This document shows, piece after piece, positions 38,773 to 58,346 of a stretch of DNA of 64,000 nucleotides. Under the pieces are notes generated by a model. It was not told where the DNA came from. It made no database searches and worked only from the letters and a program-made list of their open reading frames with translations. This DNA is from an uncultured Veillonellaceae bacterium (GTDB taxonomy: Bacteria; Bacillota; Negativicutes; JARBTT01), in contig CAWDTA010000002.1 of assembly GCA_963805085.1 (NCBI GenBank), forward strand, positions 1,216,001 through 1,280,000, in the 5' to 3' direction. Position 1 is the first letter of the stretch, and every line of letters starts with the position of its first letter. The translations under genes were made by a program, and so were the position numbers.

Positions 38773-39537
38773 CTAATTAGGTGCTGAATGGATTAGGGCA
38801 ACATTGTGTTTTTGAAAATAGTCTATATATTCTTTGTCGGGCTCTTTATCTGTAATAAAATAGTCAAGATTCTTCAATGGACAGAACGTCATAAGTGAAA
38901 CGGTTCCTGCTTTTGAAGAATCAACGAGTAATATTTTTGTACAATTTTTTTCGGTTAAATACCGCTTAATTTCACATTCGAGCGGCGAAGCATTTGTTGC
39001 ACCATTTTCAATTGAAAAGCCAGTCGAGGCGAGAAATGTTTTTGAAATGTTGTAGGTTTTTAAGCAGTTGATAACACTTGCACCGACAAAAGCGTTTGAC
39101 GGCCGATAGAGTGAACCACCTGTAGCAATGATGTTCATCTGATTGTAAGAGAACGCAGCATTGATGACATGAACGCTAGCAGTGATAATAGTTAGATTTT
39201 TTTTCTCTGCTAGATAAGGAATCATGTGCATTGTCGTTGTGCCAGAATCAATATAGATAACATCACCATCATCGACAAGGTTACTAGCCAACTTGGCAAT
39301 CTGTTTCTTTTGTGTCTGGTTTTTGATCTGACGCGCGGCAAATGGTTCGGGACTATCGTTTTGGTTGAGCATAATGCCACCGTAGACTTTCTTAATAGAC
39401 CCACGGTTTTCTAATTCCGCAATATCACGGCGAATAGTGTTTTTTGAGACTTCAAATATTTCGCAGAGTTTATTGATAGAAATGTTGTTTGATTCTTTTA
39501 AAATTTCTTCAATCTTATTTAAGCGATTTATTTTCAT
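38773..39537 (-). CDS. iolR: DeoR-family inositol catabolism repressor
   Basis: VSKNTIRRDI HTH and IDSGTT; divergent from the iol operon. Confidence 0.85.
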   Translation of the reverse strand: MKINRLNKIEEILKESNNISINKLCEIFEVSKNTIRRDIAELENRGSIKKVYGGIMLNQNDSPEPFAARQIKNQTQKKQIAKLASNLVDDGDVIYIDSGTTTMHMIPYLAEKKNLTIITASVHVINAAFSYNQMNIIATGGSLYRPSNAFVGASVINCLKTYNISKTFLASTGFSIENGATNASPLECEIKRYLTEKNCTKILLVDSSKAGTVSLMTFCPLKNLDYFITDKEPDKEYIDYFQKHNVALIHSAPN

Positions 39538-39902
39538 TATTCATCACATCCAATATCTTATTAACTCACAATTTGACAAACAATAATATACTCAAAATAT
39601 ATACAAAAAATAAGCATATTTTGAGTATGTTACCAATAATCCAATTATAAAACTCATCAAAGAAATAAACAAGTAGTTTTTTGAATTTATAATAAAAATT
39701 TTAAAATAAAAGCTTAATTTTAAAAACAGGTAGAGGGTTTTATAGAAAGTTTGAAATAGGTAGCTTCTATCAAAAAAAAGGAATTTACAAAAAACAAAAA
39801 TAATTTATTGCATAGAAAAAGGATATAAATTCTTTGTTGTGATAAACAATAAGAAATAGTCGAAATTTATATAAAAAAATTTTTATAAATGAGAAAAACC
39901 TA

Positions 39903-39987
39903 TTGACAAAAGATTAGAAATATATTAATTTATAACCAAGAGGTAATCAACACATAATCAAAAACATATCATAATATAATCAAATTA
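39903..39987 (+). promoter_or_regulatory. iol operon promoter with five tandem 11-mer IolR-type operators
   Basis: TTGACA at 39903, then in 11-nt phase: TAACCAAGAGG, TAATCAACACA, TAATCAAAAAC, ATATCATAATA, TAATCAAATTA. These resemble the B. subtilis IolR direct repeat WRAYCAADARD. Confidence 0.7.
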
Positions 39988-40015
39988 AGAAAAAAGAAAC
40001 GAGGTAATAGGTATT

Positions 40016-41167
40016 ATGAGTAACGTATTTTTAGTTCCATCAAAAATATTAACTGGATTTGGCGCAATTAACCAAATTGGAGAACACATTCAAGGTAGAG
40101 GAAAAAAAGCCTTGGTGGTTACTGATAAATTTATGGTACAGTTTGGTAATGTTGCCAAACTAACAGCAACTTTAGATGAATGTAACATCCAATACTATAT
40201 ATATGATGGTGTAAACGGTGAACCTACTGATAAAATGGTAGAAGAAGGCGTTCAGCTATACAAAGATCAAAAATGTGATTTACTGATAGCGCTTGGTGGT
40301 GGCAGTCCGATTGATACAGCGAAAGCAATTGGCTTCATGGCAAACAACACTGGCAAAATTAGCAGTTATATGAAAAAAGTCATTAATACAGAAGTTCCTT
40401 ACTTAGTAGCAATTCCAACAACAGCTGGAACTGGTTCAGAAGCTACTCAATTTACAATCATTGCGGATACAGAAAATAATGTAAAGATGCTACTTGCAGG
40501 TCCATCAATATTGCCAGCACTTGCAATCGTCGATCCAACCTTTACAATGACGGCGCCACCAAAGGTAACGGTAGCAACTGGTATAGATGCATTGACGCAT
40601 GCGATTGAAGCATATACTTCAAGAAAAGCGCAACCGTTATCTGATATCTTTGCATTAGCTGCAATCAAAAAAATTCACAAGAACTTACCAATCTGCTTTG
40701 CCGATGGTAAAAATGAAGAAGCAAGACTTCAAATGTCGCTTGGGGCGCATGAAGCTGGAATTGCATTTAACAACTCATCGATTACTATCGTTCATGGTAT
40801 GAGTAGACCAATTGGTGCACTTTTTCATATAGCACACGGTGTTAGTAATGCAGTACTTCTTACAGGTTGTATGGAATTTGCAATCAAAAAAAATACAGTA
40901 AGATTTGCTGAAATTGCAAAAATCATGGGTGTTACGGATGAGAATATGACGGATATGCAAGCCGCTCAGGCCATGGTAAAAGAGCTAGATCGCTTTTGCA
41001 AAGCTTTAGAAGTTCCAACACTTGAACAATTAGGCGTGAAGAAAGAAGACTTCTTCACACAACTGGATAAAATGGCGGATGATGCATTAGACAGTGGTAG
41101 TCCAAATAACACAATGAGGACACCAACAAAAGATGAAATTATCACAATATATAAAAAACTCTATTAA
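40016..41167 (+). CDS. Iron-containing alcohol dehydrogenase, putative malonate-semialdehyde reductase
   Basis: GGGSPID, PTTAGTGSE, DALTHAIEAY, HGMS and HG; first gene of the iol operon. Confidence 0.9.
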   Translation: MSNVFLVPSKILTGFGAINQIGEHIQGRGKKALVVTDKFMVQFGNVAKLTATLDECNIQYYIYDGVNGEPTDKMVEEGVQLYKDQKCDLLIALGGGSPIDTAKAIGFMANNTGKISSYMKKVINTEVPYLVAIPTTAGTGSEATQFTIIADTENNVKMLLAGPSILPALAIVDPTFTMTAPPKVTVATGIDALTHAIEAYTSRKAQPLSDIFALAAIKKIHKNLPICFADGKNEEARLQMSLGAHEAGIAFNNSSITIVHGMSRPIGALFHIAHGVSNAVLLTGCMEFAIKKNTVRFAEIAKIMGVTDENMTDMQAAQAMVKELDRFCKALEVPTLEQLGVKKEDFFTQLDKMADDALDSGSPNNTMRTPTKDEIITIYKKLY

Positions 41168-41196
41168 TTCAGGGGTGAAAGAAAGGAGTCAAAGAA

Positions 41197-42042
41197 ATGC
41201 CAATCGTTAAATTAGATGAGCTTTTGCTCGGCGTCAAGGATAACTCGTATGCAATCGGCTCCTTCAATGTTTCAAATATGGAAATGATAATAGGGACGAT
41301 AAAGGCTGCGGAAGAATTGAATGTACCCGTCATCATCCAGATTGCAGAAGGCAGATTGAAATACTCTCCACTGCATACGCTGGGGCCAATGATGGTAGCA
41401 GCAGCAAAAGAAGCGAAAGTTCCAGTGACAGTGCATCTTGATCATGGTGGAACAATCGAAGTTATTCATCAAGCATTGGAAATCGGATTTACTTCGGTTA
41501 TGTTTGATGGTTCTCAATATCCATTGGACATAAATATTGAAAAGACAATGCAAGTAAAAGAACTTGCAGATAAATATAATGCGAGTGTTGAAGCGGAAAT
41601 CGGTAGAGTCGGTGGCTCTGAAGGTGATTATGCCAACGTTGATATCATGATTACAAGTGTTGATGAAGCAGTGAAATTTTACGAAGCAACTAAAGTTGAC
41701 GCTTTAGCAGTAGCAATCGGTACAGCACATGGTAATTACAAAGAAGTTCCTAAACTTCGTATCGACAGATTAAAAGAAATTGCAAAAGTAGTTGCTTGTC
41801 CACTTGTTTTACATGGTGGTACAGGACTTACTGAACAGGATTTTAGAAATAGCTTAGAAAATGGTATCAAGAAAATCAATATTGCAACAGCATCTTATGA
41901 CAGCGTAGCGGCAAATGTAAAGAAACTGGCAAAAGATAAACCAGATTTCAATTACTTTGATCATACGGATACTGTAATGATGGCGACATATGAAAATGTA
42001 AAAAAACACATGTTGATTTTTGGTTTGAAAGATAAAGCATAA
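41197..42042 (+). CDS. iolJ: Class II aldolase (6-phospho-5-dehydro-2-deoxy-D-gluconate aldolase)
   Basis: VHLDHG, SVMFDGS, IGTAHG, LVLHGGTG and KIN; iol context. Confidence 0.82.
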   Translation: MPIVKLDELLLGVKDNSYAIGSFNVSNMEMIIGTIKAAEELNVPVIIQIAEGRLKYSPLHTLGPMMVAAAKEAKVPVTVHLDHGGTIEVIHQALEIGFTSVMFDGSQYPLDINIEKTMQVKELADKYNASVEAEIGRVGGSEGDYANVDIMITSVDEAVKFYEATKVDALAVAIGTAHGNYKEVPKLRIDRLKEIAKVVACPLVLHGGTGLTEQDFRNSLENGIKKINIATASYDSVAANVKKLAKDKPDFNYFDHTDTVMMATYENVKKHMLIFGLKDKA

Positions 42043-42056
42043 GGAGAGAAGAGCAA

Positions 42057-43088
42057 ATGGCAGTGATTGAATTTGACAACACAAAACATTTGGACATTGT
42101 ATTAATCGGTCGGGCAGCAATTGATTTTAACCCAAATGAGTTGAACCGTACATTAGATAAGGTAAATACTTTTACGAAATATGTGGGCGGTTCACCAGCA
42201 AACATCGCGGTTGGCGTATCAAAGCTTGGTAAAAAAGCTGGTTTCATCGGAGCAGTATCTGATGATCAATTCGGCACATTTGTTGTGGATTACTTTAATG
42301 AAAGAGATATTGATACAACAGGTATCGTAAAAGCAAAGAATGGTGAAAACTTAGGTCTTACTTTTACTGAAATTTCTAGCCCAACGGACAGTCAAATTTT
42401 GATGTATCGTAATGGCGTAGCAGATTTACAAATATCTACAGATGATGTTTCAGAAAATTATATCAAAAACAGCAAAATCTTATTGGTGTCTGGTACTGCA
42501 TTAGCAGCGAGTCCATCAAGAGAAGCCTGCTTCCTTGCTATCAAATATGCAAAAAAGCATGGTGTAAAAGTTATTTTTGATATTGACTATCGTGCGTATA
42601 CTTGGAAATCAAAAGCTGAAATTGGTATTTATTATTCGTTAGTCGGACAAATGAGTGATATCATTATTGGCTCCAGAGAAGAGTTTGAGCTTACTGAAAT
42701 GCTCCCAGAGGGTAACCAAGTACCAAATTATGAAATTGCTGAAAAATATATGAGTTTTGGTAATAAAATTGTCATCATTAAACACGGTAAAAAAGGTTCG
42801 GTCGCCTATAGCGCAGATAAAAAATCTTTTAAGGTGCAATCATTTAATATTAAATTATTAAAATCATTCGGTGGCGGCGATGCTTACGCATCAGCATTTA
42901 TTTACGGTTTACTTGAAGGCTGGAACCTAGATAAAGCTTTAGAATATGCCACAGCACATGCAGCAATGGTGGTTGCAAGTCATAGTTGTTCAGATGCAAT
43001 GCAAAGTGCAGATTCAATTCACGCATTTATTGAAGCACATAAAGATGAAAAGGTTATTACTCCAATTGACTGGAGGGACGAACTATGA
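42057..43088 (+). CDS. iolC: 5-dehydro-2-deoxygluconokinase
   Basis: YVGGSPANIA, FDIDYR and FGGGDAY; PfkB family. Confidence 0.95.
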   Translation: MAVIEFDNTKHLDIVLIGRAAIDFNPNELNRTLDKVNTFTKYVGGSPANIAVGVSKLGKKAGFIGAVSDDQFGTFVVDYFNERDIDTTGIVKAKNGENLGLTFTEISSPTDSQILMYRNGVADLQISTDDVSENYIKNSKILLVSGTALAASPSREACFLAIKYAKKHGVKVIFDIDYRAYTWKSKAEIGIYYSLVGQMSDIIIGSREEFELTEMLPEGNQVPNYEIAEKYMSFGNKIVIIKHGKKGSVAYSADKKSFKVQSFNIKLLKSFGGGDAYASAFIYGLLEGWNLDKALEYATAHAAMVVASHSCSDAMQSADSIHAFIEAHKDEKVITPIDWRDEL

Positions 43089-43870
43089 AATTCGGTCGCT
43101 TAGGTGAATTGAAACATGGCTACAATGCAATGACGACTTGTGAAAGTGCAATGCTTATGGATATTGGTTATCAGGTCATGAATGCACAAGAAAAGTTAAC
43201 ATTTAAAGATGATAAAAAAGAAACTGCATTTGTTATTTTGACTGGTGAAGTAATGATTCATTGGCAAAATGAAACGGAAATGATGAAACGGAATTTACTT
43301 TTTGATGATAATCCATACTGCTTACATGTTCCAGCGGGAACTGAGGTTATTGTTCAAGCGAATAACCATGTAGAAGTATTAATACAAAAGACCGAAAATG
43401 AAAGAAACTTTGCTCCTAAGTTCTATAGACCAGAAGATTGTCAATGCGATCAATTTGGTGCTGGAGTATGGAATGGTACTGCTGAACGGACAGTACGGAC
43501 AATATTTGATTATACCAATGCCCCATATTCTAATATGGTAAATGGTGAAGTAATTAATCGTCCAGGTAGATGGTCAGGTTATATTCCACATACACATCCA
43601 CAACCAGAGGTCTATACTTATAAGTTTAATAAACCGCAAGGATTTGGCTGCTCATTTATTGGTGATGATGCTTATAAGATTTCGCATAACAGTTATTCAG
43701 CAATTCCTGGTGGTGATAGTCATCCGCAAGTTACAGCGCCAGGGTATGCAATGTGGTATAGTTGGATGATTCGGCATTTACCAAATGATCCGTGGATAAA
43801 AACAAGAACTGATGATGTAGAACATACGTGGTTATTAGAAAAAAATGTGAAAATATGGGAACCAAAATAA
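43085..43870 (+). CDS. iolB: 5-deoxy-glucuronate isomerase
   Basis: GEV, WSGYIPHTH, E.Y.Y and HPQVTAPGY; ATGA overlap with iolC. Confidence 0.92.
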   Translation: MKFGRLGELKHGYNAMTTCESAMLMDIGYQVMNAQEKLTFKDDKKETAFVILTGEVMIHWQNETEMMKRNLLFDDNPYCLHVPAGTEVIVQANNHVEVLIQKTENERNFAPKFYRPEDCQCDQFGAGVWNGTAERTVRTIFDYTNAPYSNMVNGEVINRPGRWSGYIPHTHPQPEVYTYKFNKPQGFGCSFIGDDAYKISHNSYSAIPGGDSHPQVTAPGYAMWYSWMIRHLPNDPWIKTRTDDVEHTWLLEKNVKIWEPK

Positions 43871-43896
43871 AGAGACAAAGAAAGGTGAGGTAAACA

Positions 43897-45828
43897 ATGG
43901 GCTTTGTAAGAATGACTGTTGCACAAGCAGTAGTTAGATTCCTAGACCAACAGTATATCGAAGTGGATGGCAAAAAAAATAAATTTGTCCGTGGTATTTT
44001 TACTATATTTGGTCATGGAAATGTTGTTGGTTTGGGACAGGCTTTAGAAGAACTAGAACACAAATTAGAAGTTTATCAAGGAAAAAATGAACAAGGTATG
44101 GCACATATTGCAACTGGTTTTGCAAAACAGAAGAATCGTCACCAAATCTATGCTTGTACGTCATCCGTAGGTCCTGGAGCGGCAAATATGATTACTGCTG
44201 CCGCGACTGCAACGGCAAATAATATCCCCCTTTTATTACTGCCAGGAGATGTTTTTGCAACCCGTCAGCCAGATCCTGTTTTGCAACAGATTGAGCAAAC
44301 AGATAGTTTGGCGATTTCAACCAATGATGCATTCCAAGCAGTAAGTAAATATTGGGACCGAGTGAGCCGTCCAGAGCAATTGATGACTGCAATGATTAAT
44401 GCTATGAGGGTATTGACCGATCAGGCAAACACTGGAGCAGTGACGATTGCGTTACCACAAGATGTACAAGGCGAAGCTTACGACTTTCCAGAGTATTTCT
44501 TTCAAGAGCGTGTTCACCGAATTGATCGGAGATTACCAGTACAAGCAGCGATTGAGGATGCGGTTAAGATAATTATGCGTAAGAAAAAGCCAATCATTAT
44601 TTGTGGTGGCGGACTGCGATATGCTGAAGCTGGTGAAGAATTAAAAAGCTTTTCTGAGGCCTTTCATATTCCTTATGGTGAGACGCAGGCTGGTAAGAGC
44701 GCGGTCGCTTACGATCATGCATATAACTTAGGTGGAATCGGTGTAACTGGTAACTCGGCGGCAAATGATATAGCGCATCAGGCCGATTTGGTTATTGGGA
44801 TTGGTACGAGATTTACCGATTTTACAACGGGATCAAAAGGTGTATTTGATGCACCGAATGTAGAATTTTTGACAATCAATGTTTCTGATTTTCATGCTAA
44901 TAAATTAGATGCAGTAAAAGTTGTTGCTGATGCAAAAGTTACCTTAAAAAAAATAGAAGAAGAACTGAAAAAAGTAAATTATAAAGCTGCTTATACTGAT
45001 GAAATTAAGTTTGCAAAAGAAAAATGGCAGCTAGAATTAGAACGTTTATATGATGTTAAGTATTGCCCTGATTTTGTACCAGAGGTATCTGGTGATTTTG
45101 ATAAAAGCAAAATGACTGAATATAGAGAATCTTTAAAAACCTGCTTGACCCAAACAGAAGTAATTGGTGTATTTGATCGATTGCTTGACGATGATGCCAT
45201 TGTGGTTGGTGCATCAGGAAGTTTACCTGGATGTTTACAACGTGTATGGCGTCCAAAAAAAGTTGGTGGTTACCATATGGAATACGGTTACTCTTGTATG
45301 GGGTATGAAGTTGCTGCATCTATTGGAGCAAAATTAGCAGAAGAGAATCGTGAAGTGTATGCTTTTGTTGGTGATGGCAGTTATCTCATGCTGCACACGG
45401 AATTGGTAACTAGCATTCAAGAAGGGATAAAAACCAATATTGTTTTACTCGACAATAGTGGTTTTGGCTGTATCAATAATTTACAAATGGGTAATGGTAT
45501 GGGCAGTTTCTATACAGAATTTAGAAAACGTTCAAAAGATGGAAAAGGCAATGGTGCTTTATTGCAAATTGATTTTGCTAAAAATGCCGAGGCTTATGGG
45601 GCAAAGACATATTCCATTCATACGTTAGAAGAATTAGAAGCAGCTATTATAGATGCAAAAAAACAAACGGTATCAACATTATTTGATATAAAGGTATTGC
45701 CAAAAACGATGACCCATGGGTATGGTGCAGATTGGAATGTTGGCTTAGCTGAAATTTCTAGCAATGCTAAGATTAATGCTGCATACCAAAACCGTAGAAG
45801 CTTCTTAGACAAAGCGAGAAAGTACTAA
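43897..45828 (+). CDS. iolD: 3D-(3,5/4)-trihydroxycyclohexane-1,2-dione acylhydrolase
   Basis: [33 protein letters not shown] and the ThDP motif GDGSY. Confidence 0.97.
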
Positions 45829-45872: not shown

Positions 45873-46898
45873 ATGTTGAAAATCGGTATTATTGGTGCAG
45901 GTCGTATTGGTAAGGTTCATGGAGAAAGCATTGCAAAATATGTAAAAAATGCCACGGTAAAAGCAATTGCTGATCCATTTCTAAATGATGAAACAAAAGA
46001 ATGGGCCAAGTCTATGGGCATTGAGCATACGTATACGGATTATAAAAAAATTATGAATGATTCTGAAATTGATGCGGTGCTTATTTGTGCTTCAACAGAT
46101 ATGCATTCTCCACTTTCTATAGAAGCAATTCAAGCGGGTAAACATGTTTTTTGTGAAAAACCAATTGATCATGATGTAGAAAAAATCAAAGAGGTTTTAA
46201 ATGTTGTTAAAGCTTCTGATCGGAAATACCAAGTTGGTTTTAACCGCCGTTTTGACCATAATTTTAGAGCTGCACAAGAAGCGGTTGCTGCAGGTAAGAT
46301 TGGTAAACAACAAATTATTAAAATTACTTCTCGTGATCCCGAAGCACCACCAATCAGCTATGTAAAAGTTTCTGGCGGAATGTTCTTAGATATGACAATT
46401 CATGATTTTGATATGGTTAGATTTTTATCTGGCAGTGAAGTTGAAGAAGTATACACTGTAGGCGGAGTTACGGTTGATCCAGCAATTGGTGAAGCGGGTG
46501 ACGTTGACACTGCAATTATCAGCTTAAAACTTGCCAATGGTGCTATGGCTGTGATTGATAACTGTCGTCAAGCTGTATATGGTTATGACCAACGTGCTGA
46601 AGTATTTGGAACAGAGGGAGCAATTCAAATTAGCAATGATAGTGCCTCCAATGCAATTCTTAGTAATAGAGATGGAGTTACTGCTGAAAAACCATTGTAT
46701 TTCTTCTTAGAACGTTATATGCGTGCTTATGCTGATGAAATTGGTGCTTTTGTTGATGCGATTGTTGAAGATAAAGAAGTTATGGTAAATGCAGAGGATG
46801 GTTTAGAACCAGTCATTATCGGCCTAGCTGCTAAAAAATCATTACTTGAAAATAGACCAGTTAAGACTGCTGAAATTAAGCAAGCTTTTGGTTTATAA
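45873..46898 (+). CDS. iolG: myo-Inositol 2-dehydrogenase
   Basis: GAGRIG, CEKP, GFNRRFD, SRDP, DMTIHDFD and YGYDQR. Confidence 0.95.
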   Translation: MLKIGIIGAGRIGKVHGESIAKYVKNATVKAIADPFLNDETKEWAKSMGIEHTYTDYKKIMNDSEIDAVLICASTDMHSPLSIEAIQAGKHVFCEKPIDHDVEKIKEVLNVVKASDRKYQVGFNRRFDHNFRAAQEAVAAGKIGKQQIIKITSRDPEAPPISYVKVSGGMFLDMTIHDFDMVRFLSGSEVEEVYTVGGVTVDPAIGEAGDVDTAIISLKLANGAMAVIDNCRQAVYGYDQRAEVFGTEGAIQISNDSASNAILSNRDGVTAEKPLYFFLERYMRAYADEIGAFVDAIVEDKEVMVNAEDGLEPVIIGLAAKKSLLENRPVKTAEIKQAFGL

Positions 46899-46902
46899 AT
46901 AA

Positions 46903-47116: not shown

Positions 47117-48013
47117 ATGTTAAATATAAATGATATTCATTTGGGGATTGCACCGATTGCTTGGACAAATGATGATATGCCTGACTTAGGCAAAGAAAAT
47201 ACGTTTGAACAATGTATCAGTGAAATGGCTTTGGCTGGATTTACTGGCTGCGAAGTAGGAAATAAATATCCTCGGAATACTAGTGTCTTAAGTAAAGCTT
47301 TGAAAATACGTGGACTAAAAATTGCGAGTGCGTGGTTTAGTTCTTTTTTAACGACAAAACCGTTGCAAGAAACAATAGATGCGTTTATTGAACATCGTGA
47401 TTTTTTATGTGCAATGGGCGCTAAAGTAGTTGTAGTATCTGAACAAGGACACAGTGTTCAAGGGCAAGTAAAAACGCCGATTTTTGCCAAGAAACCATAC
47501 TTTACAGAAGATGAATGGAATAAACTTGCCACAGGGTTAAATAAACTTGGCGAGCTCGCAAAAGAAAAAGACATGAATGTTGTTTACCATCATCATATGG
47601 GAACTGGAGTACAAACAGCGGTAGAAATTGATAAACTAATGGAAATGACAGATCCTGCGTTAGTCTCTTTATTATTTGATAGTGGACATTTAGTTTATTC
47701 AGGAGAAAATCATTTAGCCGTGTTGAGAAAACATGTAGATCGTATCAAACATGTGCATTTAAAAGATATTCGAATCGAAAAAGTACAAGAGGTAAAAGAA
47801 AAACAGTTAAGCTTTCTAGAAGGTGTTAGATTAGGTACATTTACAGTCCCTGGTGATGGTTCAATTGATTTTATGCCAATTTTCGAAATATTAGCAAAAG
47901 CGAGATATCAAGGTTGGTTTGTAGTTGAAGCAGAACAAGATCCTTCCAAAGCAAATCCATTTGAATATGCTCAAAAAGCAAGATGTTATATTAAGAAAAC
48001 AGCAAATTTATAA
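47117..48013 (+). CDS. iolE: myo-Inosose-2 dehydratase
   Basis: [27 protein letters not shown] and VEAEQDP. Confidence 0.97.
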
Positions 48014-48125
48014 AAAACAGAGTATTCCAATAATTGTATTTAATGGTTTCTAATTGATGAAGAAAAACAGCATATTAAAGATGAATCACTGATCAAACAT
48101 ATATTTAATAGTGTAAATTGAAGGA

Positions 48126-49502: not shown

Positions 49503-49541
49503 TAAGCCCCGTAATCTATCGTAAATATTTGTGCTGATGCA

Positions 49542-49581
49542 GATGTAATAAATTACAGAATATTCTGTAATTTATTACATC
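49542..49581. repeat. Perfect 40-bp palindrome
   Basis: GATGTAATAAATTACAGAAT|ATTCTGTAATTTATTACATC, with no spacer. Confidence 0.9.
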
Positions 49582-49695
49582 ATAAGCATTTAATTAGAAA
49601 TAAGTTCGATAAGCATATTTATTAAATTAAATATTTTTCGTTACTTAACAGTGACAGGGCAGAGGGTTAAATCAAACACATAAGGAGCATATGTT

Positions 49696-50412
49696 ATGGC
49701 AAAATTTATTGCAGATTTACACACACATACAATTTCATGCAGGCATGGTTTTAGTACGGTTACGGAAATTATCAAAGCCGCAGCTGATATTGGATTAGAA
49801 GCAGTTGGCCTCACCGAACATGGACCAGGTTATCCTGGCAGTGTTGGCGATGCATACTTTAATACTTACAGGGATATACCGTCAGAAATGTTTGGCATCA
49901 CTGTTCTAAAAGGTTGTGAGGTTAACATGATGGACTTTTATGGTAAGGTAGATTTGGAACAGTCCCGCATGGCTAAATTGGATATTGTTATTGCCAGTTG
50001 CCACAAAGAATGCACCCCTATAGGCTCTATAGAGGAGAATACAAAAATGTATTTAGGGGCTATTAGGAATCCTTATGTCGACATTATCGGTCATCCTGAT
50101 GCACCTCTTTATCCTATTGACATAGAAAAAGTCGTAAAGGCAGCGGTTAAATATGGGGTCGCCCTGGAAGTTAATAATAGTTCACCAGCGGCGCGTCCCA
50201 GCAGTGAAAAATTATGTGCTGAGATCATCCGCTTAGCAAAAAAATTTGGAGCAAAGCTGGCTGTGGGTTCGGATGCACATTATCATGTAGTTGTTGGCAA
50301 GTTTGATTATGCATATAAAATGATTACAGAAGGTACCTTTCCACTTGATCAAGTTATAAATTCTTCAAAAGATAATTTAATGGCTCATCTTCGCCGGAAT
50401 CGAAAACTTTAA
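49696..50412 (+). CDS. PHP-family phosphatase (YcdX-like), cytoplasmic
   Basis: DLHTHT, TEHGP, GCE, GHPD, EVNNSS and GSDAH; no signal peptide. Confidence 0.9.
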   Translation: MAKFIADLHTHTISCRHGFSTVTEIIKAAADIGLEAVGLTEHGPGYPGSVGDAYFNTYRDIPSEMFGITVLKGCEVNMMDFYGKVDLEQSRMAKLDIVIASCHKECTPIGSIEENTKMYLGAIRNPYVDIIGHPDAPLYPIDIEKVVKAAVKYGVALEVNNSSPAARPSSEKLCAEIIRLAKKFGAKLAVGSDAHYHVVVGKFDYAYKMITEGTFPLDQVINSSKDNLMAHLRRNRKL

Positions 50413-50476
50413 TTGCACTAAAGTTTTCGAAGAATATGCCGATGTGATTCATTAAATCAAAAAAATAAATAGGGAG

Positions 50477-51430
50477 TTGAATTTAATGAAAAAAGCTTTA
50501 TGGTTTAAGTCTATTTTATCCATTATGATGGCAGTTGCTTTACTTTTCCAATTTACTTTATTTGCATCAGCCGCTGAATCAAATAAAGTAGTTTTAAAAA
50601 TTGACAGGGCCGATGCCGATCAACTGCCAAGAAATTATAGAACGACTGATGATACTTTTCGTGCTACAAAAGATGGACAGTATCCTTCACGCGTTGGTTT
50701 GAAGGATATTCATGCCTCCGCCAGCAGTATTTTTTCAGAAAAAGAATTTGAACAAGTAATATCAAGGGCACACGGCAATGTAATTGTTGTAGACTTACGC
50801 CAGGAATCGCACGGATATCTTAATGGTATGGCTGTTAGCTGGTTTGGTGCTAATAATTGGGGAAATGACGGAAAAGATTTGGAACAAGTTAAAGTTATTG
50901 AAAAAGGCTTACTTGATAAGGCTTTAACAGAAACACCAACAACTATTTATCATTTTGATGATGATAAAAACGTAACCACCGAGTCTTTTCAGATTAATGT
51001 TGAAAACGCACTTACTGAAGAAGAAATGATAAAATCTCATGGGGCAGGCTATTTTCGGTTAGCTTGTTCAGATCATTTCCGTCCCGAAGATGCTGATGTT
51101 GATCGTTTTCTTGAGTTTTATAAATTGCTTCCAAAGGATGCATGGCTACACTTTCATTGCTTTGCGGGTGAAGGACGTACAACTATTTTTATGAATATGT
51201 ATGATATTTTAAAAAATGCAAAAAAAGTAAGCTATGATGATATTGCATTACGACAAGGGTTAATTGGACCAGTTGATATTCGAAATGTACCGGCTTCTAA
51301 AATGAATTGGAAACGTAAAGCCTATATTGAACGTGCTCAATTTGTTAAACATTTTTATGATTTTGTAAAACAAAGTCCGGATAATTTGCCAATGACTTGG
51401 TCGAAATGGGCTAGGCAACATAGTTATTAA
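50477..51430 (+). CDS. Secreted protein-tyrosine-phosphatase-like (cysteine) phytase
   Basis: Sec signal ending ASA|AES, LPRNYR, VDLRQESHG, SDH acid loop and P-loop WLHFHCFAGEGRTT (CX5R), as in Selenomonas PhyA-type enzymes. Confidence 0.92.
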   Translation: MNLMKKALWFKSILSIMMAVALLFQFTLFASAAESNKVVLKIDRADADQLPRNYRTTDDTFRATKDGQYPSRVGLKDIHASASSIFSEKEFEQVISRAHGNVIVVDLRQESHGYLNGMAVSWFGANNWGNDGKDLEQVKVIEKGLLDKALTETPTTIYHFDDDKNVTTESFQINVENALTEEEMIKSHGAGYFRLACSDHFRPEDADVDRFLEFYKLLPKDAWLHFHCFAGEGRTTIFMNMYDILKNAKKVSYDDIALRQGLIGPVDIRNVPASKMNWKRKAYIERAQFVKHFYDFVKQSPDNLPMTWSKWARQHSY

Positions 51431-51742
51431 TTAGCCACAGTCTTCTTATGCCTGTTGCTTGGGAGAGTGATTTTTGATACAGCGCAGATAAAAATTTAGA
51501 AAATAAACGAATATAAATGAAAAATATGCAGAGGTAATTCATTAATTGTTGAATATTTTGCCTGATCTGATCATGGCTAAAGAAGGATGGGAACAGAAAT
51601 AAAACGCGTCAATTTTGTTAAAATTTTATTATATGACTAGATGGCATAACGTGAAGTTAGCTGTTAATTCATAAATTGGCACCAATGAAATTTATATTTA
51701 CAGACTAAAGTGCTCTAATGAAGTAACAGAATAGGTTTGATG

Positions 51743-51790
51743 AAGATAGACAGTGTAGATAATCTTTATGATGTCTACACTGTCTATCTT
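51743..51790. repeat. 17-bp stem-loop directly upstream of the MCP RBS
   Basis: AAGATAGACAGTGTAGA...TCTACACTGTCTATCTT, with no U-tract. Confidence 0.8.
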
Positions 51791-51813
51791 ATGTAAAAGG
51801 AGAGATATCTATT

Positions 51814-53814
51814 ATGTGGAAGAAAATGAATATGATGTCAAAGATGTTACTAGCTTTATTATTGCCAATGTTTCTTATTGTTGCGGGAATTTGTACGTAT
51901 TCTTATTTTGAGTCTCGTAATATCTTAAATAAGCAAATCATGCAGACCGTTACTTATATGGCGGAAAGTCAAAGTAATACGGTATACTATACATTGAAAG
52001 AAAAAGAAACGTTACTTACAATGTGTGCTGAGATTTTAGGACAAAAAGAGATGTCCACATCAGAGCGTATTGCTTTATATAAACAAGTGAAAGCAAATTT
52101 TACTGGAATTAAATCAGTATTTGATGGTTATGAAGATAAAACATGTAGTGATTCTCAAGGGGTAACAGAAAAAGAAAAGCCAGCAGGATATGATCCAAAA
52201 AGTCGTATTTGGTATAAGATTGCAAATGAATCAAAAGGTGTTGGCTATACACCTGCTTTTGAGACGTCTAACAAATCACTATCAGTAGATTTAAGTAAAA
52301 AAATTATTCGCAATGGACAAATGGTAGGTGTTGTGGGGGTCGATATTGATATTAGCCAAATACGTGAATTAGCACAAAATTTTAAAATTGGTGAAACCGG
52401 ATATGTAGCAATTTTAGATGAAAAAGGCAATTTCATTTCTCATCCTAAATTTGGTTTGACGGATAATATTAATGAGGTGGAAAATGGAAATCTAAAAAGC
52501 TATGCGGGTTCTTTGATGAATAAGCAGGCAAATGTACAAAGTGGAATTTTAAATGGTGAACAAGTATTAATGTCTGCATCACCAATTGGTAATACCGGAT
52601 GGACTTTTGTGATATTTGCGCCAGAAAAAGAGTTGTTTAGGGATGTAAATGAATTGGCCTTAAAGTCGATAACTTCCAGTCTTATTGGATTGATTTTAAT
52701 TGGTTTTATCATTATCGTTATTACAATTAATTTTGTGAAACATATAAAATTAATTGACAAAATGGCGGGAGAAATAGCAGCTGGTGATTTGCAGATTGAT
52801 CATGATTATAAAACAGATGAATCTAGTAAAGACGAAATTGATAAATTAATTCATAGTTTCCAACGAATGAAAATAAAATTACGTTCCTTAATCAGTAATG
52901 TTAGTACTTCAGCGATACAAGTTACACAGTCAACAGGACAGTTCTATGAAAGTTCCCAACAGTCAGCGGAAGCTGCAGATAGTGTTGCTTCTTCGATAAC
53001 ACATTTAGTTGGAGCAACTGAAAGTCAGGTAAAAGCCGTTAATGAAGTAGTAACAATAGTGGGCAAAATGTCGGAGAACATACAAAATGTTGCTGGCAGT
53101 GCAAATAGTATGGCAGGTATTGCAGACGAAGCCGCTGGAGCAACTATTTCAGGAAAACAATCAGTTGATGAGGCTGTTGCACAAATGGATAATGTCAGCA
53201 AAGCCGCTAATCGGGCGAAACTTGCATCGACTGATATGGAAAAAAGTTCAGATCAAATCGGGCAAATTGTTGAAATGATTTCTAATATTGCGGGACAAAC
53301 CAATTTACTTGCATTAAATGCGGCAATTGAGGCGGCAAGAGCCGGTAATCAAGGTCGTGGGTTTGCTGTAGTAGCGGAAGAGGTTCGGAAATTAGCTGAA
53401 CAATCTGATCATGCAGCCAGACAAATTACGGAATTAGTACAGAAAAATCATGAAAATATTGATCATATGGTTACATCAATTGAAGATGCAATTAATGATG
53501 TAAATCAGGGAAGTACACGTGTTTATGCCGCAGGCGAAGAATTTAAAAAAATCTTGGATATGGTAAATAATTTAGTGAATCGTGTAAAGCAAATATCTTC
53601 ATCGCTTGATGAGATTTCTAGCGGCAGCCAAAGCATTGTTGTTGCAGTAAACGATGTAGATGAGGTATGTAAAGGAACAGCAACTGAATTTGAAAGTGTA
53701 TCAGCGGCTGTTGAAGAACAGTCAGCATCAATGCAAGAAATTGCATCATCATGTTCTGCACTAAGTAATTTAGCGGAAAAATTAGATTGTGAAGTTCAAA
53801 AATTTAAATTATAG
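51814..53814 (+). CDS. dCache_1-HAMP methyl-accepting chemotaxis protein
   Basis: TM1, [23 protein letters not shown]...HP, TM2, DEI HAMP motif and the MCP signature. Confidence 0.93.
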
Positions 53815-53895
53815 CCAGCTTTAATTAAACAATATAGAATGTTAATGCTGCTAACGTTTAAAGTATGTACGACTTTTATAGGGGGGAGAAAACTT

Positions 53896-56817
53896 ATGAT
53901 GAGCAAAGAAACTATATTGAATGGACCATATCTATTGGCTCCGACTACGAATAGTATGACCATAGCCTGGGAGACTCGGTTTCAGGGGCAGACAAATGTA
54001 TTTTATGGGGTAAATGAGCAGTTTGATCAGCAAGCAGAAGTACAAGTGCAAAGGGCAACGCCCTATAAAGATAATCCTGATGGTAATTTTATCTCTACGA
54101 CAATTATAAACAAACTGGATGCAGACACAAAATATAGCTATAAAATTAAACTTGGAAATGAGCAAGAAGTTTGTGGCGAGTTTAAGACACTGGGGGATAA
54201 TCCAGATATAAAGCGAATTTTTACGATAAGTGACTCCCATCTGTTTAATACAAACAAGCAATTTGCTAATATAGTTTTAGCTAATAAGCCTGATTTTATT
54301 ATTCATATTGGAGATATCTCATTTGGAACCGGATATCAACGTGAACAGTATGAGGATAATTGGTTTAAGAAAATTCCAGAAGTAATAAAAACAATTCCTG
54401 TTATACATGTACCTGGTAATCATGATGATGGTCCATTTTATAATGACTTTTTTACTTTTCCTCAATCAAAGACTTACCAGTGTGATGAAGCAAAACGAAG
54501 TTTTTCATTTGACTATGGGAAAATTCATTTTTTAATACTTGATAGCAACCCTTGGGGATTATTTGAGATGAATGCAATTAATTCAGGATTGTCTGCAGAT
54601 AGTGAAACGAAGAAGATAATTTATAATACATTAGAATGGGCAATTGATGATTTAAAATCAAATCAAGCAAAAAATGCTGACTGGCGGGTAATCGTACTCC
54701 ATCACCCGTATACAGATGAATTTAATAATAAGTATATTGTTCCTATCGCTGAAAAGTATAATGTTAATTTAGTGATTAGCGGGCATCTACATTATTATGT
54801 TAAAAGTGTTTCTATTAACCCAGAGATTGGTGCTAAAACAGTTTATTTAACCCAAGGAAGTGCACAAGATGGAGAACATGAATTAAATCTAGGGCAGTTT
54901 GATAAGCGGTTATTAGTAGAATTTCCAGAAGTTGTTGCACTTGGAAAAGGTAATTATGGGGAGCTAGATATAACAAAAAGTAACCTGGCTTATAAAAGCT
55001 ATGGATTTAATAAGGATGACGATAAAGAGATTTTGGTTGATACAGTTGTTTTAACAAAGGAAAAACCTGAAATAATTATCTCTGATGTTCAAATTGATAC
55101 GATCGATAAATTTGGACATATTCGAATTACTGGTAAAGCCAAAAATGCAGGTAGTGGTTTTGAAGCTGTAATAGTTAAGGTCATCGATAATGGTGCAGAA
55201 CATGTCATTAATTTATTTGGTAATAAGGGAAAAGAGCGGATTATTGCTTTGAATTGTAATGAGGAAAAAGATTTTATTGCGCTTTATCAAACCACAGATC
55301 CTGGACAGCATGAATTGTATGTAGAAGGTATTACTAAAAGCATTACAGTTTATGAACCAGAGCAACTGACTTTTGAACACATGAAGCTTAAAGTTGGTAA
55401 TGAAAAAAATACTAACCTGCTAATTGCAAGTGTTGAAATTACAAATAATTTAAAAAACGAAGTGCAAGTACCTGTTGATCTGATTATCAACAAAGAAGTT
55501 GTTCAAAGAAAAATGACATCATTAGCGGGTTATGAGAAAAAAAATATAGAGTATTATCATAAGTTATCAAGAGGTGGAAGTTATAAAGTTAAGATAGCCA
55601 ATTTAGAAGAAAAAGAGATCAGAATACAAGGCCCTGTACGAATAATACCAAGGGTTAAGGATCTATCTGGTAATGGCAATGATGCTCTTTTACATGGCAC
55701 GCCAAGGGTAATAAAAGAGAAAGATAGAGTAATCGTACATTTAGATCAATATAGTGATTATTTGGAAATTCCAGATAGTGACAGTTTGCGCGTTAGCGAT
55801 GGCTTTACCGGCATGGTTTGGGCAAATATTAGTAGATTAGCTCAGGGGGCAGAGATGTCACATAATCCGCTGATGGTTAAAGGAAAGTCAATTGGTTGGG
55901 GGGCGACATATTTATTGCGTATGGCAGTTGAGAGAGCTGGTAGTTTAAAATGGGGAACTTGTCATGATATTACCGAATATGCCTGGCAAGGTGGTAATGC
56001 AAGTTTAAATGAATGGGTCCATTATACCTCTTCTTTTGATAAAAAAAGTGGTGGCACTTCTTATTGCAATACGAATAAAGTTGCAGAGATCTCAGGCATC
56101 GGTGCTGATGCTAAATTAAGAAATTGGGAGGATGAACCATTGTTTGTTGGCTATTCATATATTGGGCATGTAATTGAAGAAATTGGCAGACCTAAATATT
56201 TTACGCATTTACCAGCGCAAATTAGTCAGGTCAGATTTTACAGAACGAAATTATCCAGTCAAGAAAATCAATTAATTTATAAAAAGCCAGCTGAAATTGG
56301 ACCCAAAAGTGATGAATTAGCAGTCTGGCTGGACTTTAATAATATTATTACGACCGGGACTCATATTACGGAGTGGAGACGCCCGGCAATCTTTGAACCT
56401 TCATATAAAACCGAAAAAAAATATTGGGATTTTAATCAGTTAAAAGTTACCGCTGTTATACCAGTTGAAACAACATTAGAAGCTACAGTTGAAGTTTCTG
56501 ATGATGGTGATTTAGTCAAGGATTCGAAGAAAATTTGTATACATGATGGAGTGTGCTGTGTTGATCTAAGTAATTTACAGCAAGCACAGTATATTAGAAT
56601 TATGACAAAATTTGTAGCTGAAGTTGGTGATAAGGGAATTTTTACTCCTGAATTGTGGGAATATCAGGTTACTGCATCAACAGAAAGTATTTTTACAGAG
56701 ATGATATGGGCAACACGCGATGATTGGGAAAAGGGTCGAATGACCGATGCAGTTGGTTTCGAACCAGTTGACAGGCTCAAAACTTTTCATGAATATACAG
56801 ATGTTATTCATGGCTAG
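53896..56817 (+). CDS. Large multidomain metallophosphoesterase (PAP-like FN3 + calcineurin-like MPP + Ig/CARDB-like + LamG-like)
   Basis: GPYL...SMTIAWET, DSH, GDISF, GNHD, HHP and GHLH. The C-terminal part has DLSGNGND...YLEIP...WVHY...ISQVRFY. No signal peptide. Confidence 0.8.
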   Translation: MMSKETILNGPYLLAPTTNSMTIAWETRFQGQTNVFYGVNEQFDQQAEVQVQRATPYKDNPDGNFISTTIINKLDADTKYSYKIKLGNEQEVCGEFKTLGDNPDIKRIFTISDSHLFNTNKQFANIVLANKPDFIIHIGDISFGTGYQREQYEDNWFKKIPEVIKTIPVIHVPGNHDDGPFYNDFFTFPQSKTYQCDEAKRSFSFDYGKIHFLILDSNPWGLFEMNAINSGLSADSETKKIIYNTLEWAIDDLKSNQAKNADWRVIVLHHPYTDEFNNKYIVPIAEKYNVNLVISGHLHYYVKSVSINPEIGAKTVYLTQGSAQDGEHELNLGQFDKRLLVEFPEVVALGKGNYGELDITKSNLAYKSYGFNKDDDKEILVDTVVLTKEKPEIIISDVQIDTIDKFGHIRITGKAKNAGSGFEAVIVKVIDNGAEHVINLFGNKGKERIIALNCNEEKDFIALYQTTDPGQHELYVEGITKSITVYEPEQLTFEHMKLKVGNEKNTNLLIASVEITNNLKNEVQVPVDLIINKEVVQRKMTSLAGYEKKNIEYYHKLSRGGSYKVKIANLEEKEIRIQGPVRIIPRVKDLSGNGNDALLHGTPRVIKEKDRVIVHLDQYSDYLEIPDSDSLRVSDGFTGMVWANISRLAQGAEMSHNPLMVKGKSIGWGATYLLRMAVERAGSLKWGTCHDITEYAWQGGNASLNEWVHYTSSFDKKSGGTSYCNTNKVAEISGIGADAKLRNWEDEPLFVGYSYIGHVIEEIGRPKYFTHLPAQISQVRFYRTKLSSQENQLIYKKPAEIGPKSDELAVWLDFNNIITTGTHITEWRRPAIFEPSYKTEKKYWDFNQLKVTAVIPVETTLEATVEVSDDGDLVKDSKKICIHDGVCCVDLSNLQQAQYIRIMTKFVAEVGDKGIFTPELWEYQVTASTESIFTEMIWATRDDWEKGRMTDAVGFEPVDRLKTFHEYTDVIHG

Positions 56818-56930
56818 GCTGTTTGTATTAGGAGGATTAACTTTATTTAAAATGATAGTCCTGGAATTTAGTTTTAGATAAGTCCGTAGTTTTTTTATTA
56901 TAAATTGCAGATATAGAGAGGAGTTATGTA

Positions 56931-58346
56931 GTGGATCTTATCATGATTTTTATTAGTTTAGTCGGTTTAATGTATTTGGCTTATCGTGGATATTCCATTA
57001 TATTAATCGCACCTGCCTTTGCTGTGATAGCGGCTATTGGTAGTGGCTATGCAGCGATGCCGATTTATAGTGAGCTTTATATGACAAAAGCAGCAGAATA
57101 TATTAAAAATTATTATCCGGTCTTTTTATTGGGAGCAGTCTTTGCCAAGGTTATGGAATCTGGTGGACTTGCAGCGGCAGTTGCGAGTAAAATCGTACAA
57201 ACGCTTGGTAAAGAAAGAGCGATTTTAGCCGTGCTCTTGGGCTGCGGGGCTTTGACATACGGAGGGCTAAGTGTATTTGTAGTTGCATTTGTGATGTACC
57301 CGTTTTCTGCTATTTTATTTAAGCAAGCGAAAATTCCCAAACGATTACTACCAGCAACCTTATGGATGGGGATACTTACCTATGCGATGATTGCCATTCC
57401 GGGGACTCCTCAGATTCAAAATATTATTCCAACGGCTTTTTTTGGTACGACGACTTGGGCGGGAATTAGTACAGGTCTTTTTGCTACATTATTATATTTT
57501 GTTATTGCATGGGCATGGATCAGTTATCGACATAAGAAATTAGCAAGTCAGGGCGAAGGTTATGGAAATTATATTTTAAACGAACCAGAGGATGTAAAAG
57601 AAGATCTACCACATTGGAGCTTGGCGGCGTTACCACTGGTTCTCGTTGTTGTGATTAATTTGATTGTGAGCAATCCTTTTACTTGGCAATGGGCATATCA
57701 TTGGGATAACCATAGTTTAGAGAATTTTACAACGCTAAAATTGTCACTTTTAGCATCTAGTGTCGATCGTGTACAAGCGATATGGTCGATTAATGTTGCG
57801 CTTATTATAAGCAGCATTGTTGCGGCATTCATTGGGCGAAAACGTTTAAAAACGCAAGGAGGCGTACTTTCACCGATTAATATGGGAGCTGTATCTTCTA
57901 CTTCAGCAGTTTTGAATGTAGCATCTGGCTACGCATTTGGTTGTGTTATCGCTATCTTACCAGGTTTTCAAATCATCAAAGAAATGCTGCTGAATTTAAG
58001 TGTTGGTGATGGGCCATTACTTTCTGCAATCATTACGACGAATATTATGACAGGAATTACGGGATCGGCATCGGGGGGGTTAACCATAGCGTTGGGGATG
58101 CTTGGAAATGAATGGCTTGCTTGGGCAAACAGCATGCAGATGTCACCGGAGATTTTACATCGAATTGTTTGTATTGCTTCTGAAGGCATTGATACAGTAC
58201 CGCATTCTGGAGCGTTAGTTACCCTTTTTGCAGTCTGTGGATTAACTCATAAAGATTCTTATTATGATGTTTTTATACTAACAATACTAAAAACGACAAT
58301 TGCTTTTATTTGTTTGGCTTTTTATAGCATAACAGGACTCGTTTAA
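56931..58346 (+). CDS. GntP-family H+/organic acid permease
   Basis: LTYGGLSVFV, PGTPQIQNIIP, GITGSASGG and DTVPHSGA. Confidence 0.9.
   Translation: MDLIMIFISLVGLMYLAYRGYSIILIAPAFAVIAAIGSGYAAMPIYSELYMTKAAEYIKNYYPVFLLGAVFAKVMESGGLAAAVASKIVQTLGKERAILAVLLGCGALTYGGLSVFVVAFVMYPFSAILFKQAKIPKRLLPATLWMGILTYAMIAIPGTPQIQNIIPTAFFGTTTWAGISTGLFATLLYFVIAWAWISYRHKKLASQGEGYGNYILNEPEDVKEDLPHWSLAALPLVLVVVINLIVSNPFTWQWAYHWDNHSLENFTTLKLSLLASSVDRVQAIWSINVALIISSIVAAFIGRKRLKTQGGVLSPINMGAVSSTSAVLNVASGYAFGCVIAILPGFQIIKEMLLNLSVGDGPLLSAIITTNIMTGITGSASGGLTIALGMLGNEWLAWANSMQMSPEILHRIVCIASEGIDTVPHSGALVTLFAVCGLTHKDSYYDVFILTILKTTIAFICLAFYSITGLV

Follow-up and report, generated by a model that had tools for sequence, protein, structure and literature searches.

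A candidate inositol-phosphate foraging and fermentation locus built on an iol operon in an uncultured Veillonellaceae bacterium

The inositol catabolism (iol) locus considered here lies in a 64,000-nucleotide stretch of the genome of an uncultured Veillonellaceae bacterium, a soil-type anaerobe (assembly GCA_963805085.1, contig CAWDTA010000002.1, positions 1,216,001 to 1,280,000), which we call the window and whose numbering is used throughout. The original prediction, made from the sequence alone, described a divergent iolR and one co-directional run of genes from an iron-dependent alcohol dehydrogenase (Fe-ADH) to a permease, closed by a strong terminator, and took the whole for a candidate complete system for living on phytate. 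The list of open reading frames (ORFs) and Pfam and NCBIfam scans bear out the layout: all 14 genes were located where they had been placed, with iolR, a DeoR-family repressor gene, on the minus strand (38773-39537; HTH_DeoR and DeoRC domains) and the remainder on the plus strand. It is the single iol cluster of the 4.2-Mb genome. We consider it probable that an iol operon has here incorporated a module for acquiring inositol phosphates, which would make it an integrated locus for inositol-phosphate foraging and fermentation. The conserved heart of the system is a pair of genes encoding an OPA-family antiporter and a large metallophosphoesterase (MPE), not the phytase.

The run opens with the Fe-ADH gene (40016-41167; Fe-ADH and ADH_Fe_C domains), followed by iolJ, encoding a class II aldolase (41197-42042), iolC (42057-43088), iolB (43085-43870), iolD (43897-45828), iolG (45873-46898) and iolE (47117-48013). 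IolC, IolD, IolG and IolE are clustered, and each scores above its NCBIfam equivalog cut-off (TIGR04382, 407.4 bits against 300; TIGR04377, 937.4 against 715; TIGR04380, 481.5 against 355; and TIGR04379, 425.4 against 290, respectively). IolB is a family-level match (Pfam KduI/IolB, 184 bits; TIGR04378, 90.8 bits against a cut-off of 205), and IolJ passes a class II aldolase model that is not specific for IolJ (409.7 bits against 396); both were assigned by position. The iolR product scores under every equivalog cut-off, so its name likewise rests on position. With the iol operon of the Bacillus subtilis type the cluster shares the IolG, IolE, IolD and IolC equivalogs, family-level IolB and IolJ, a divergent DeoR-type regulator and an operator overlapping the promoter. 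Unlike that operon, it has no iolA (malonate-semialdehyde dehydrogenase), a Pfam scan of 38.7-58.4 kb having found no aldehyde dehydrogenase, and no inositol transporter of the iolT/iolF type; it begins with Fe-ADH, and the space from iolE to the permease holds an organophosphate antiporter and phosphatases of three folds.

The gene after iolE (48126-49502) encodes an OPA-family MFS antiporter (GlpT/UhpT/PgtP-like). Its six best NCBIfam matches are all OPA-family models (PgtP, GlpT, UhpC and UhpT), every one below its cut-off (subfamily scores against cut-offs were 253/408, 237/633, 217/564 and 133/497), so that none of these characterised subfamilies is reached. The closest solved structure is GlpT (1pw4, E 9e-57). 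Residues K86, H167 and R266 are invariant in 21 orthologues and align with what we take to be K80, H165 and R269 of the GlpT phosphate site. The protein thus has the MFS fold and the phosphate-site Lys, His and Arg in common with the GlpT, UhpT and PgtP antiporters and differs from them in its subfamily scores and in having the MPE and iol genes as genomic partners. Its homologues are named in their sources only as 'MFS transporter' or 'UhpC-like'. OPA carriers swap an organophosphate for inorganic phosphate (Pi), an exchange in which carbon is gained and net phosphorus is zero. We propose that the window protein is an inositol-phosphate:Pi exchanger.

The MPE gene lies further downstream (53896-56817, ~973 aa). 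The family named for it in the original prediction stands. The ORF as listed runs from 53839 and gives 992 aa with Metallophos and Laminin_G_3 domains and a weak N-terminal domain of the purple acid phosphatase (PAP) type (Pur_ac_phosph_N, 28.4 bits, under the cut-off of 30). Orthologues adjacent to an OPA gene begin 5-12 residues ahead of an invariant NGPYLL motif (read by eye), so the window start is probably 53896 and the OPA-adjacent copies are without a signal peptide. Two copies that do not adjoin OPA, one at locus L038 and an extra paralogue at L054, do have one. The layout is a PAP-like N-terminal domain, Metallophos, a ConA-like region and a conserved C-terminal region. In 42 sequences the metal-ligand motifs (DxH, GD, GNHD, H and GHxH) are invariant, and the C-terminal 570 residues are conserved as well as the catalytic part. 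Members of this small, unnamed family (146 clusters at E <=1e-10) are labelled 'metallophosphoesterase', 'purple acid phosphatase family' or 'CpdA', and the only solved relatives are plant PAPs, kidney-bean PAP being the best (E 1.6e-6). With PAPs, plant PAP phytases included, the MPE shares a fibronectin-like N-terminal domain followed by Metallophos. Unlike them, it is twice as long, has a conserved C-terminal part of ~570 residues with a ConA-like domain, begins its motifs with DxH, carries Phe at the position of the chromophoric Tyr and lacks a signal peptide in the OPA-linked copies. An ESM Atlas look-up of the C-terminal part returned only ConA-like/Laminin_G_3 clusters (scores <=0.92), nothing beyond Pfam. 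We propose for the MPE a role as a cytoplasmic phosphatase of inositol phosphates, with the OPA antiporter as its core partner.

The relatives of the MPE add two observations. On a metagenome contig with about 93% identity to the window, the phytase and chemoreceptor genes are separated by one for an MPE paralogue of 1007 aa that has a signal peptide (L054:1607-4630), where the window has a 170-bp unmatched spacer (51441-51611); this could be either a deletion in the window lineage or an insertion in L054. The nearest named relatives of the window MPE are from Clostridium species (68-73% identity, against at most 57% for named Negativicutes), unlike the window OPA protein, which is nearest to Negativicutes. 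The module may be a mosaic, with exchange between classes.

Conservation was assessed in an even sample of 301 Negativicutes genomes from 93 genera (300 without the window genome itself); the 27 regions around MPE matches were fetched and scored with all window proteins. The sampled genomes are related, not independent, and the counts are given without a test statistic. MPE orthologues occur in 27 of the 301 genomes and 13 of the 93 genera. An OPA gene accompanies an MPE of ~970 aa without signal peptide in 25 of the 27 regions, with iol genes beside the pair in 18. The other genes are less constant: PTP-like phytases are present in 16 regions, the PHP gene in 8 (after OPA), an orthologous chemoreceptor in 6 and the permease in 3. 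The presence of three unrelated phosphatase folds in one iol locus had been thought unusual; PHP, MPE and PTP occur together in 6 of the 27 regions, and so the window is not a one-off. Five named loci were found through the PTP enzyme, in an uncultured Pelosinus, P. propionicus, Anaerospora hongkongensis and two metagenome-assembled genomes (one Bacillota, one Megamonas). All five carry OPA, MPE and at least one PTP gene, with iol genes in three and a chemoreceptor gene in four. The synteny search in Negativicutes that had been proposed as a check thus finds the neighbourhood conserved in five of five such loci and across several families. The divergent arrangement of iolR and Fe-ADH-iolJ-iolC-iolB-iolD itself recurs at no fewer than 10 loci from four families (L015, L018, L019, L020, L022, L040, L041, L042, L045 and L046). 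An independent metagenome sample gave 77 loci. Of these, 69 extend far enough 5' of MPE, and 54 of the 69 have OPA there at a distance of no more than 1.2 kb; since many of the contigs are near-duplicates, the numbers overstate independence.

Outside the window genome, iolD is present in 51 of 300 genomes. MPE occurs in 25 of these 51 and in 1 of the 249 iolD-negative genomes, so that 25 of the 26 MPE-positive genomes have iolD. PTP-like phytases were matched in 24 of the 26 MPE-positive genomes, compared with 66 of the 274 MPE-negative ones. The co-occurrence with iolD bears on one alternative, namely that the stretch from OPA to MPE is a module for scavenging phosphate, controlled by phosphate starvation, which lies in the iol locus by chance and uses phytate as a phosphorus source only. 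Phytases are classically seen as phosphate-acquisition enzymes, but chance placement does not fit a gene nearly confined to iolD-positive genomes, and an antiporter that exports one phosphate for each organophosphate would bring no net phosphorus from a monophosphate. From genome comparison, the iol-type operator and published physiology we regard this alternative as very improbable, and further evidence on it is given below with the features concerned.

The replacement of one genomic slot points the same way. The locus of genome G009 (L048, G009:C7:2388000-2407999) is collinear with window positions 34096-61361 through hisJ, a GGDEF gene, iolR, Fe-ADH, iolJCBDGE, the permease, a 221-aa gene and an ABC transporter. 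There a single gene, for a 539-aa sodium:solute symporter (PF00474), separates iolE from the permease; at that slot the window (48014-56930) has OPA-PHP-PTP-MCP-MPE, where MCP is a methyl-accepting chemotaxis protein. It looks as if a solute importer has been exchanged for an import-and-dephosphorylate module, and a module that fills a symporter slot within an iol operon speaks against a phosphorus-only role. A close homologue of the symporter was not found in the window genome (best match 24% identity), which has two sugar-porter genes elsewhere. The iol proteins of G009 and the window are 86-94% identical, the products of hisJ, the GGDEF gene, the 221-aa gene and the ABC genes 68-78% and IolR 59%, and the two genomes are assigned to separate families (f1 and f4). 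It is possible that the iol operon was transferred or recombined later than its flanks.

Signals for regulation were found ahead of Fe-ADH, in a promoter with a putative IolR operator array (39903-39983, plus strand). A promoter-like TTGACA (39903-39908) is separated by 17 nt from TAATTT (read by eye). After this -10 element lie five TAAYCA half-sites phased at 11 bp (39933-39983), with matches to the phased motif at 39933, 39944, 39955 and 39966. An alignment of the iolR/Fe-ADH intergenic regions of eight genomes has TTGACA, 17 nt, TAAATT or TAATTT and the direct repeats TAATCA-N5-TWAYCAA in all of them. Since the motif was built from these Fe-ADH promoters, matches there are circular and it is the other sites that are informative. 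Such sites lie 63-222 bp upstream of OPA at L001/L013, L032, L033, L050 (twice), L053 and L091-L093, the distance being 63 bp at L001/L013 and 80-97 bp at L032 and L033. The motif is also found 5' of iolG at L058 and 5' of the symporter gene at five loci, and only 3 of the 28 matches in 935 kb of metagenome loci fall elsewhere. Thus, in other lineages, an OPA gene that heads its own transcription unit bears an iol operator, which again speaks against control by phosphate starvation. In the window OPA begins 112 bp after iolE without an operator, which fits co-transcription with the iol genes.

Three strong hairpins, none of them listed by a consensus terminator scan, were revealed by folding. 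The one that ends the run (58419-58464) has a 20-bp stem, -23.9 kcal/mol and a z-score of -9.1, with 0 of 200 shuffles as stable; it is preceded by an A-run and followed by a U-run, and so the strong terminator predicted at about 58.4 kb is confirmed. The other two have no U-run after them. One, a perfect 18-bp stem, lies between OPA and PHP (49542-49581; -26.3 kcal/mol, z -7.2), the other just 5' of the MCP ribosome-binding site (51743-51790; -31.6 kcal/mol, z -6.1). Short words common to the intergenic regions are AT-rich, the palindrome at 49542-49581 apart, and this hairpin might influence the stability or processing of the RNA, act as a partial terminator or bind a protein. A single transcript for the run is plausible. 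A champion of the phosphate-scavenging alternative could point out that in the window no iol-type operator directly precedes PHP, PTP, MCP or MPE, and that, with the internal hairpins in between, these genes may not be coupled to the iol promoter.

The PTP-like inositol polyphosphatase ('cysteine phytase', 50477-51430) is predicted to be secreted. It scores 96.9 bits against PF14566 (cut-off 27), its P-loop HCFAGEGRT agrees with C-X5-R-(S/T), and its N-terminus is signal-peptide-like (MKKALWFKSILSIMMAVALLFQFTLFASA/AE), the ATG at 50486 being the likely start. E-values against phytases of the PDB range from 3e-157 to 5e-38, and the best match is domain 1 (D1) of the tandem enzyme 3f41 (E 5e-99), compared with 5e-56 for domain 2 (D2) and 3e-56 for PhyAsr. 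The enzyme shares with PhyAmm (PDB 3f41) and PhyAsr (PDB 1u24) the fold family, the CX5R(T) P-loop and predicted secretion; it is single-domain, unlike the tandem PhyAmm, and differs in having Glu in its P-loop. A tree of 41 PTP domains has three clades: clade I unites the window enzyme with the D1 domains and with MPE-adjacent enzymes from other families, clade II consists of second single-domain enzymes, and clade III holds the D2 domains and the other paralogue of the window genome. This D2/PhyAsr-like paralogue has an N-terminal membrane anchor and is encoded about 350 kb away on the same contig. Relatives usually carry all three PTP types side by side. The module of an Anaerospora locus (L035, genome G173) combines three PTP-like enzymes, MPE, OPA and MCP with a beta-propeller phytase (L035:2987-4153; PF02333, E 1e-145), and thus has two phytase folds.

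Other proteins accompany the secreted phytases of relatives. Tandem two-domain PTP phytases (ORFs of 630-663 aa) are encoded in 12 of the 301 sampled genomes (G057, G068, G074, G086, G139, G143, G147, G219, G266, G284, G296 and G299), an architecture that a 2024 review (PMC10982552) terms rare, citing three other sequences. At loci of the Selenomonadaceae type, genes for outer-membrane-type proteins lie beside secreted phytase genes (L012:9413-10666; L026:8799-9998; L022:18375-19586; L024:14910-16205; L014:5939-7228; L047:2832-5760 and 10195-11409). Some of these proteins have SLH and Porin_5 domains, others combine a coiled coil with a signal peptide, and all are candidate routes for phytate across the outer membrane.

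The third phosphatase fold is a PHP-family, YcdX-like metal phosphoesterase (49696-50412). It scores 51.3 bits against PF02811 (cut-off 26.4), falls just under the cut-off of NF006702 (255.2 against 264) and matches YcdX (PDB 1m65) with E 1e-36 over residues 6-232; no signal peptide was seen. Directly beside MPE or PTP genes of other loci we also observed a family of ~385-aa proteins with a twin-arginine signal (L017:11760-12929, L030:11732-12901, L036:7318-8481, L022:14124-15272 and L047:5960-7108). They match no Pfam family, with a weak hint of an HD domain in one member (E 8e-4), and may add another phosphohydrolase to the periplasmic side of the system. The window genome has a homologue with 40-47% identity on another contig (G000:C3:75694-76773).

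The chemoreceptor (51814-53814) has dCache_1 (PF02743, 76 bits), HAMP (PF00672, 31.8 bits) and MCPsignal (PF00015, 159.3 bits) domains, and the last gene of the run (56931-58346) encodes a 471-aa permease. The label 'GntP' given to the latter found no support in the family scans, as neither PF02447 (Pfam searched to E 10) nor a curated GntP model of NCBIfam matches it; the GntP-like grouping, within the ion-transporter superfamily, comes solely from the source names of homologues with 60-79% identity, a minority of which, named 'GntP family permease', have precomputed PF02447 or PF03600 matches. One could suppose that these two genes are unrelated passengers, the MCP sensing something else and the permease importing a sugar acid. 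They are the least constant members of the related regions, as the counts above show; the permease matches no curated family, and the ligand of the MCP is not readable from its sequence, a PDB search with the sensor domain having returned only distant dCache structures from which no ligand can be inferred. We nevertheless think it unlikely that they are passengers. The MCP sensor domain is 46-54% identical to those of module-linked MCPs at seven distinct related loci from at least four families, compared with 28% for its best paralogue in its own genome. Of 23 permease orthologues with at least 69% identity, 15 lie within 20 kb of iolD, which makes the permease a gene of the iol cluster, outside the phosphatase module. 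Both genes, moreover, sit between the module genes and the terminator.

Two enzymatic or transport assignments at the ends of the run concern the fate of malonate semialdehyde. The best NCBIfam model for Fe-ADH is lactaldehyde reductase (340 bits against a cut-off of 523), and in relatives orthologues with 54-86% identity are the first gene of the iol operon. We propose that Fe-ADH is a malonate-semialdehyde reductase yielding 3-hydroxypropionate, and that the permease is a carrier of this hydroxy acid. Nitrosopumilus has a malonic semialdehyde reductase that belongs to the Fe-ADH family (PMC5797428).

The physiology of Mitsuokella offers the nearest published comparison. Mitsuokella jalaludinii ferments phytate as a carbon source, via the inositol monophosphate Ins(2)P and inositol, to 3-hydroxypropionate (De Vos et al. 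2024, PMC7618129), a further difficulty for the idea that phytate serves as a phosphorus source only. The pathway genes named there are a phytase, an 'inositol transporter', a 2-hydroxy-3-oxopropionate reductase and a permease. Both systems would have in common a phytase in the periplasm, a route through Ins(2)P and inositol, an iol cluster, 3-hydroxypropionate as product and a permease for hydroxy acids, but the genes named for Mitsuokella are scattered, whereas in the window all of these functions fall in one run. In the main text of that paper the terms 'alcohol dehydrogenase' and 'chemotaxis' do not occur; antiporter and metallophosphoesterase were not among the terms searched. One sampled genome, G074, encodes the crystallised tandem phytase, with a score of 1399 bits to PDB 3f41 and 4wu3, and in this genome and its genus-mates (L015, L018, L019 and L020) OPA-MPE lies directly upstream of iolR/Fe-ADH-iolJCBD. 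The same module is therefore most likely present in the Mitsuokella group that was studied. Our literature searches, which did not extend to the gene-identity supplements of PMC7618129, turned up no account of an OPA carrier for inositol phosphates, of this MPE family or of genes clustered in this way.

Several observations weigh against the reading of the locus as an integrated inositol-phosphate system, or limit it. The in-cluster PTP enzyme is of the D1 type by both structure match and tree, and D1 is presumably the site of the tandem phytase that prefers lower inositol phosphates, so that attack on InsP6 may depend on genes outside the cluster. A review (PMC10982552) describes one active site of the tandem phytase as favouring lower inositol phosphates. 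The cluster encodes neither a porin nor any other outer-membrane step. The claim that the locus is a complete phytate system is therefore not supported, given the D1-type enzyme, the distance of ~350 kb to the D2-type paralogue and the missing outer-membrane step. On the side of transport, position 51 of the OPA protein, aligned with R45 of GlpT, is Lys in the window and Arg in most orthologues, and the known OPA substrates given in a review (PMC9306846) are glycerol-3-phosphate, glucose-6-phosphate, phosphoglycerates and phosphoenolpyruvate, with inositol phosphate not in that list. As for regulation, TAATCA-N5-TWAYCAA occurs nowhere else in the 64-kb window with up to one mismatch, the array at Fe-ADH being the only one; matches with two mismatches inside the cluster are unphased and mostly in coding sequence. 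The internal hairpins and gaps of 194-384 bp could split the run into separate transcription units. A methylmalonate-semialdehyde dehydrogenase scoring over its cut-off is encoded on another contig, and hence a route to acetyl-CoA is conceivable; the formation of 3-hydroxypropionate in M. jalaludinii is ascribed by its authors to a different reductase (PMC7618129). A general complementarity of symporter and module, as the G009 locus might suggest, was rejected, since symporter orthologues are present in 5 of the 301 genomes and 4 of these are MPE-positive. Finally, the window genome is 83% complete with 6% contamination.

Some of the evidence would also suit a different substrate. The OPA-MPE pair might handle another organophosphate of inositol, such as glycerophosphoinositol, or inositol-1-phosphate or cyclic inositol phosphate derived from phosphatidylinositol lipids, with the MPE acting as a phosphodiesterase and the PTP phytases being optional. 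The pair is indeed steadier than the phytases (25 as opposed to 16 of the 27 regions): 11 regions have no PTP gene nearby, and 2 of the 26 MPE-positive genomes have no PTP match at all. The MPE superfamily includes diesterases, with some members named CpdA or 'phosphodiesterase'. The Tyr ligand of PAPs (GDLSY) aligns with Phe in the MPE (GDISF), which is therefore not a strict purple acid phosphatase, and the closest solved transporter, GlpT, carries glycerol-3-phosphate. These points have to be set against the PTP-like phytases in the other 24 MPE-positive genomes, the two phytase folds (PTP-like and beta-propeller) that directly adjoin MPE in many loci and the secreted MPE paralogues that stand among secreted phytases. 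Moreover, the only solved-structure likeness of the MPE, its N-terminal domain included, is to PAPs, which are monoesterases. On balance we judge a substrate of this other kind to be rather improbable.

What therefore stands of the integrated phytate pathway first proposed is its link to inositol catabolism, drawn from synteny, the co-occurrence of MPE and iolD, the operator at OPA, the G009 slot, the MCP orthologues and the physiology of Mitsuokella; its completeness is not supported. These comparisons support a functional tie of inositol catabolism to the genes for the phosphatases, the transporter and the chemoreceptor, as opposed to a chance neighbourhood. Established directly were the identity of the genes at family level, the conservation of synteny, the patterns of co-occurrence, the operator motif and the replacement at the G009 slot. 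We infer the substrate assignments, the compartments (N-termini read by eye) and co-transcription that enter the following scheme.

In the periplasm, the secreted PTP-like polyphosphatase would act on phytate-derived inositol phosphates and leave low inositol phosphates such as Ins(2)P, assisted by the D2-type paralogue of the same genome and, in relatives, by further paralogues. The OPA antiporter would bring inositol (mono)phosphate in and let cytoplasmic phosphate out. The MPE, without a signal peptide, would strip the remaining phosphate with the help of the YcdX-like PHP enzyme and so regenerate the counter-substrate of the antiporter. IolG, IolE, IolD, IolB, IolC and IolJ would then convert the ring to dihydroxyacetone phosphate and malonate semialdehyde, Fe-ADH would reduce the latter to 3-hydroxypropionate as a redox sink, and the GntP-like permease would carry 3-hydroxypropionate across the membrane. 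The dCache MCP would guide the cell toward the substrate, and IolR would repress the entire run through the direct-repeat array that overlaps the Fe-ADH promoter. Only tentatively do we put forward the joint claim that the OPA protein is the first inositol-monophosphate:phosphate antiporter, that the MPE is a new inositol-phosphate phosphatase removing the axial 2-phosphate that resists phytases, and that the dCache receptor senses inositol phosphates.

Two observations lie to the side of this scheme. G006, the sole sampled congener of the window genome (84% complete), yielded no match for MPE, PTP-like phytase, iolD or the permease, and the whole locus may be accessory. Elsewhere in the window (4772-6628), an H-NOX (haem-NO-binding) domain is fused to an MCP signalling domain, in a gene with no relation to the iol locus.

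Phytate, the chief form in which seeds store organic phosphorus, also brings much carbon into guts and soils, and phytate-fermenting anaerobes shape propionate production in the gut (PMC7618129). The OPA and MPE genes, uncharacterised and tightly co-inherited, are nominated here for the crossing of the inner membrane by the phosphorylated ring and for the removal of its last phosphate; the regulator motif and the chemoreceptor are nominated as well, and all four can be put directly to the test. A transporter and a phosphatase that together handle Ins(2)P would be relevant to feed enzymes, as residual lower inositol phosphates limit phosphate release. If the joint claim on carrier, phosphatase and receptor is true, the genes form a portable cassette that would make an inositol-fermenting anaerobe a phytate-fermenting one and would give the published Mitsuokella pathway the uptake step that it lacks.

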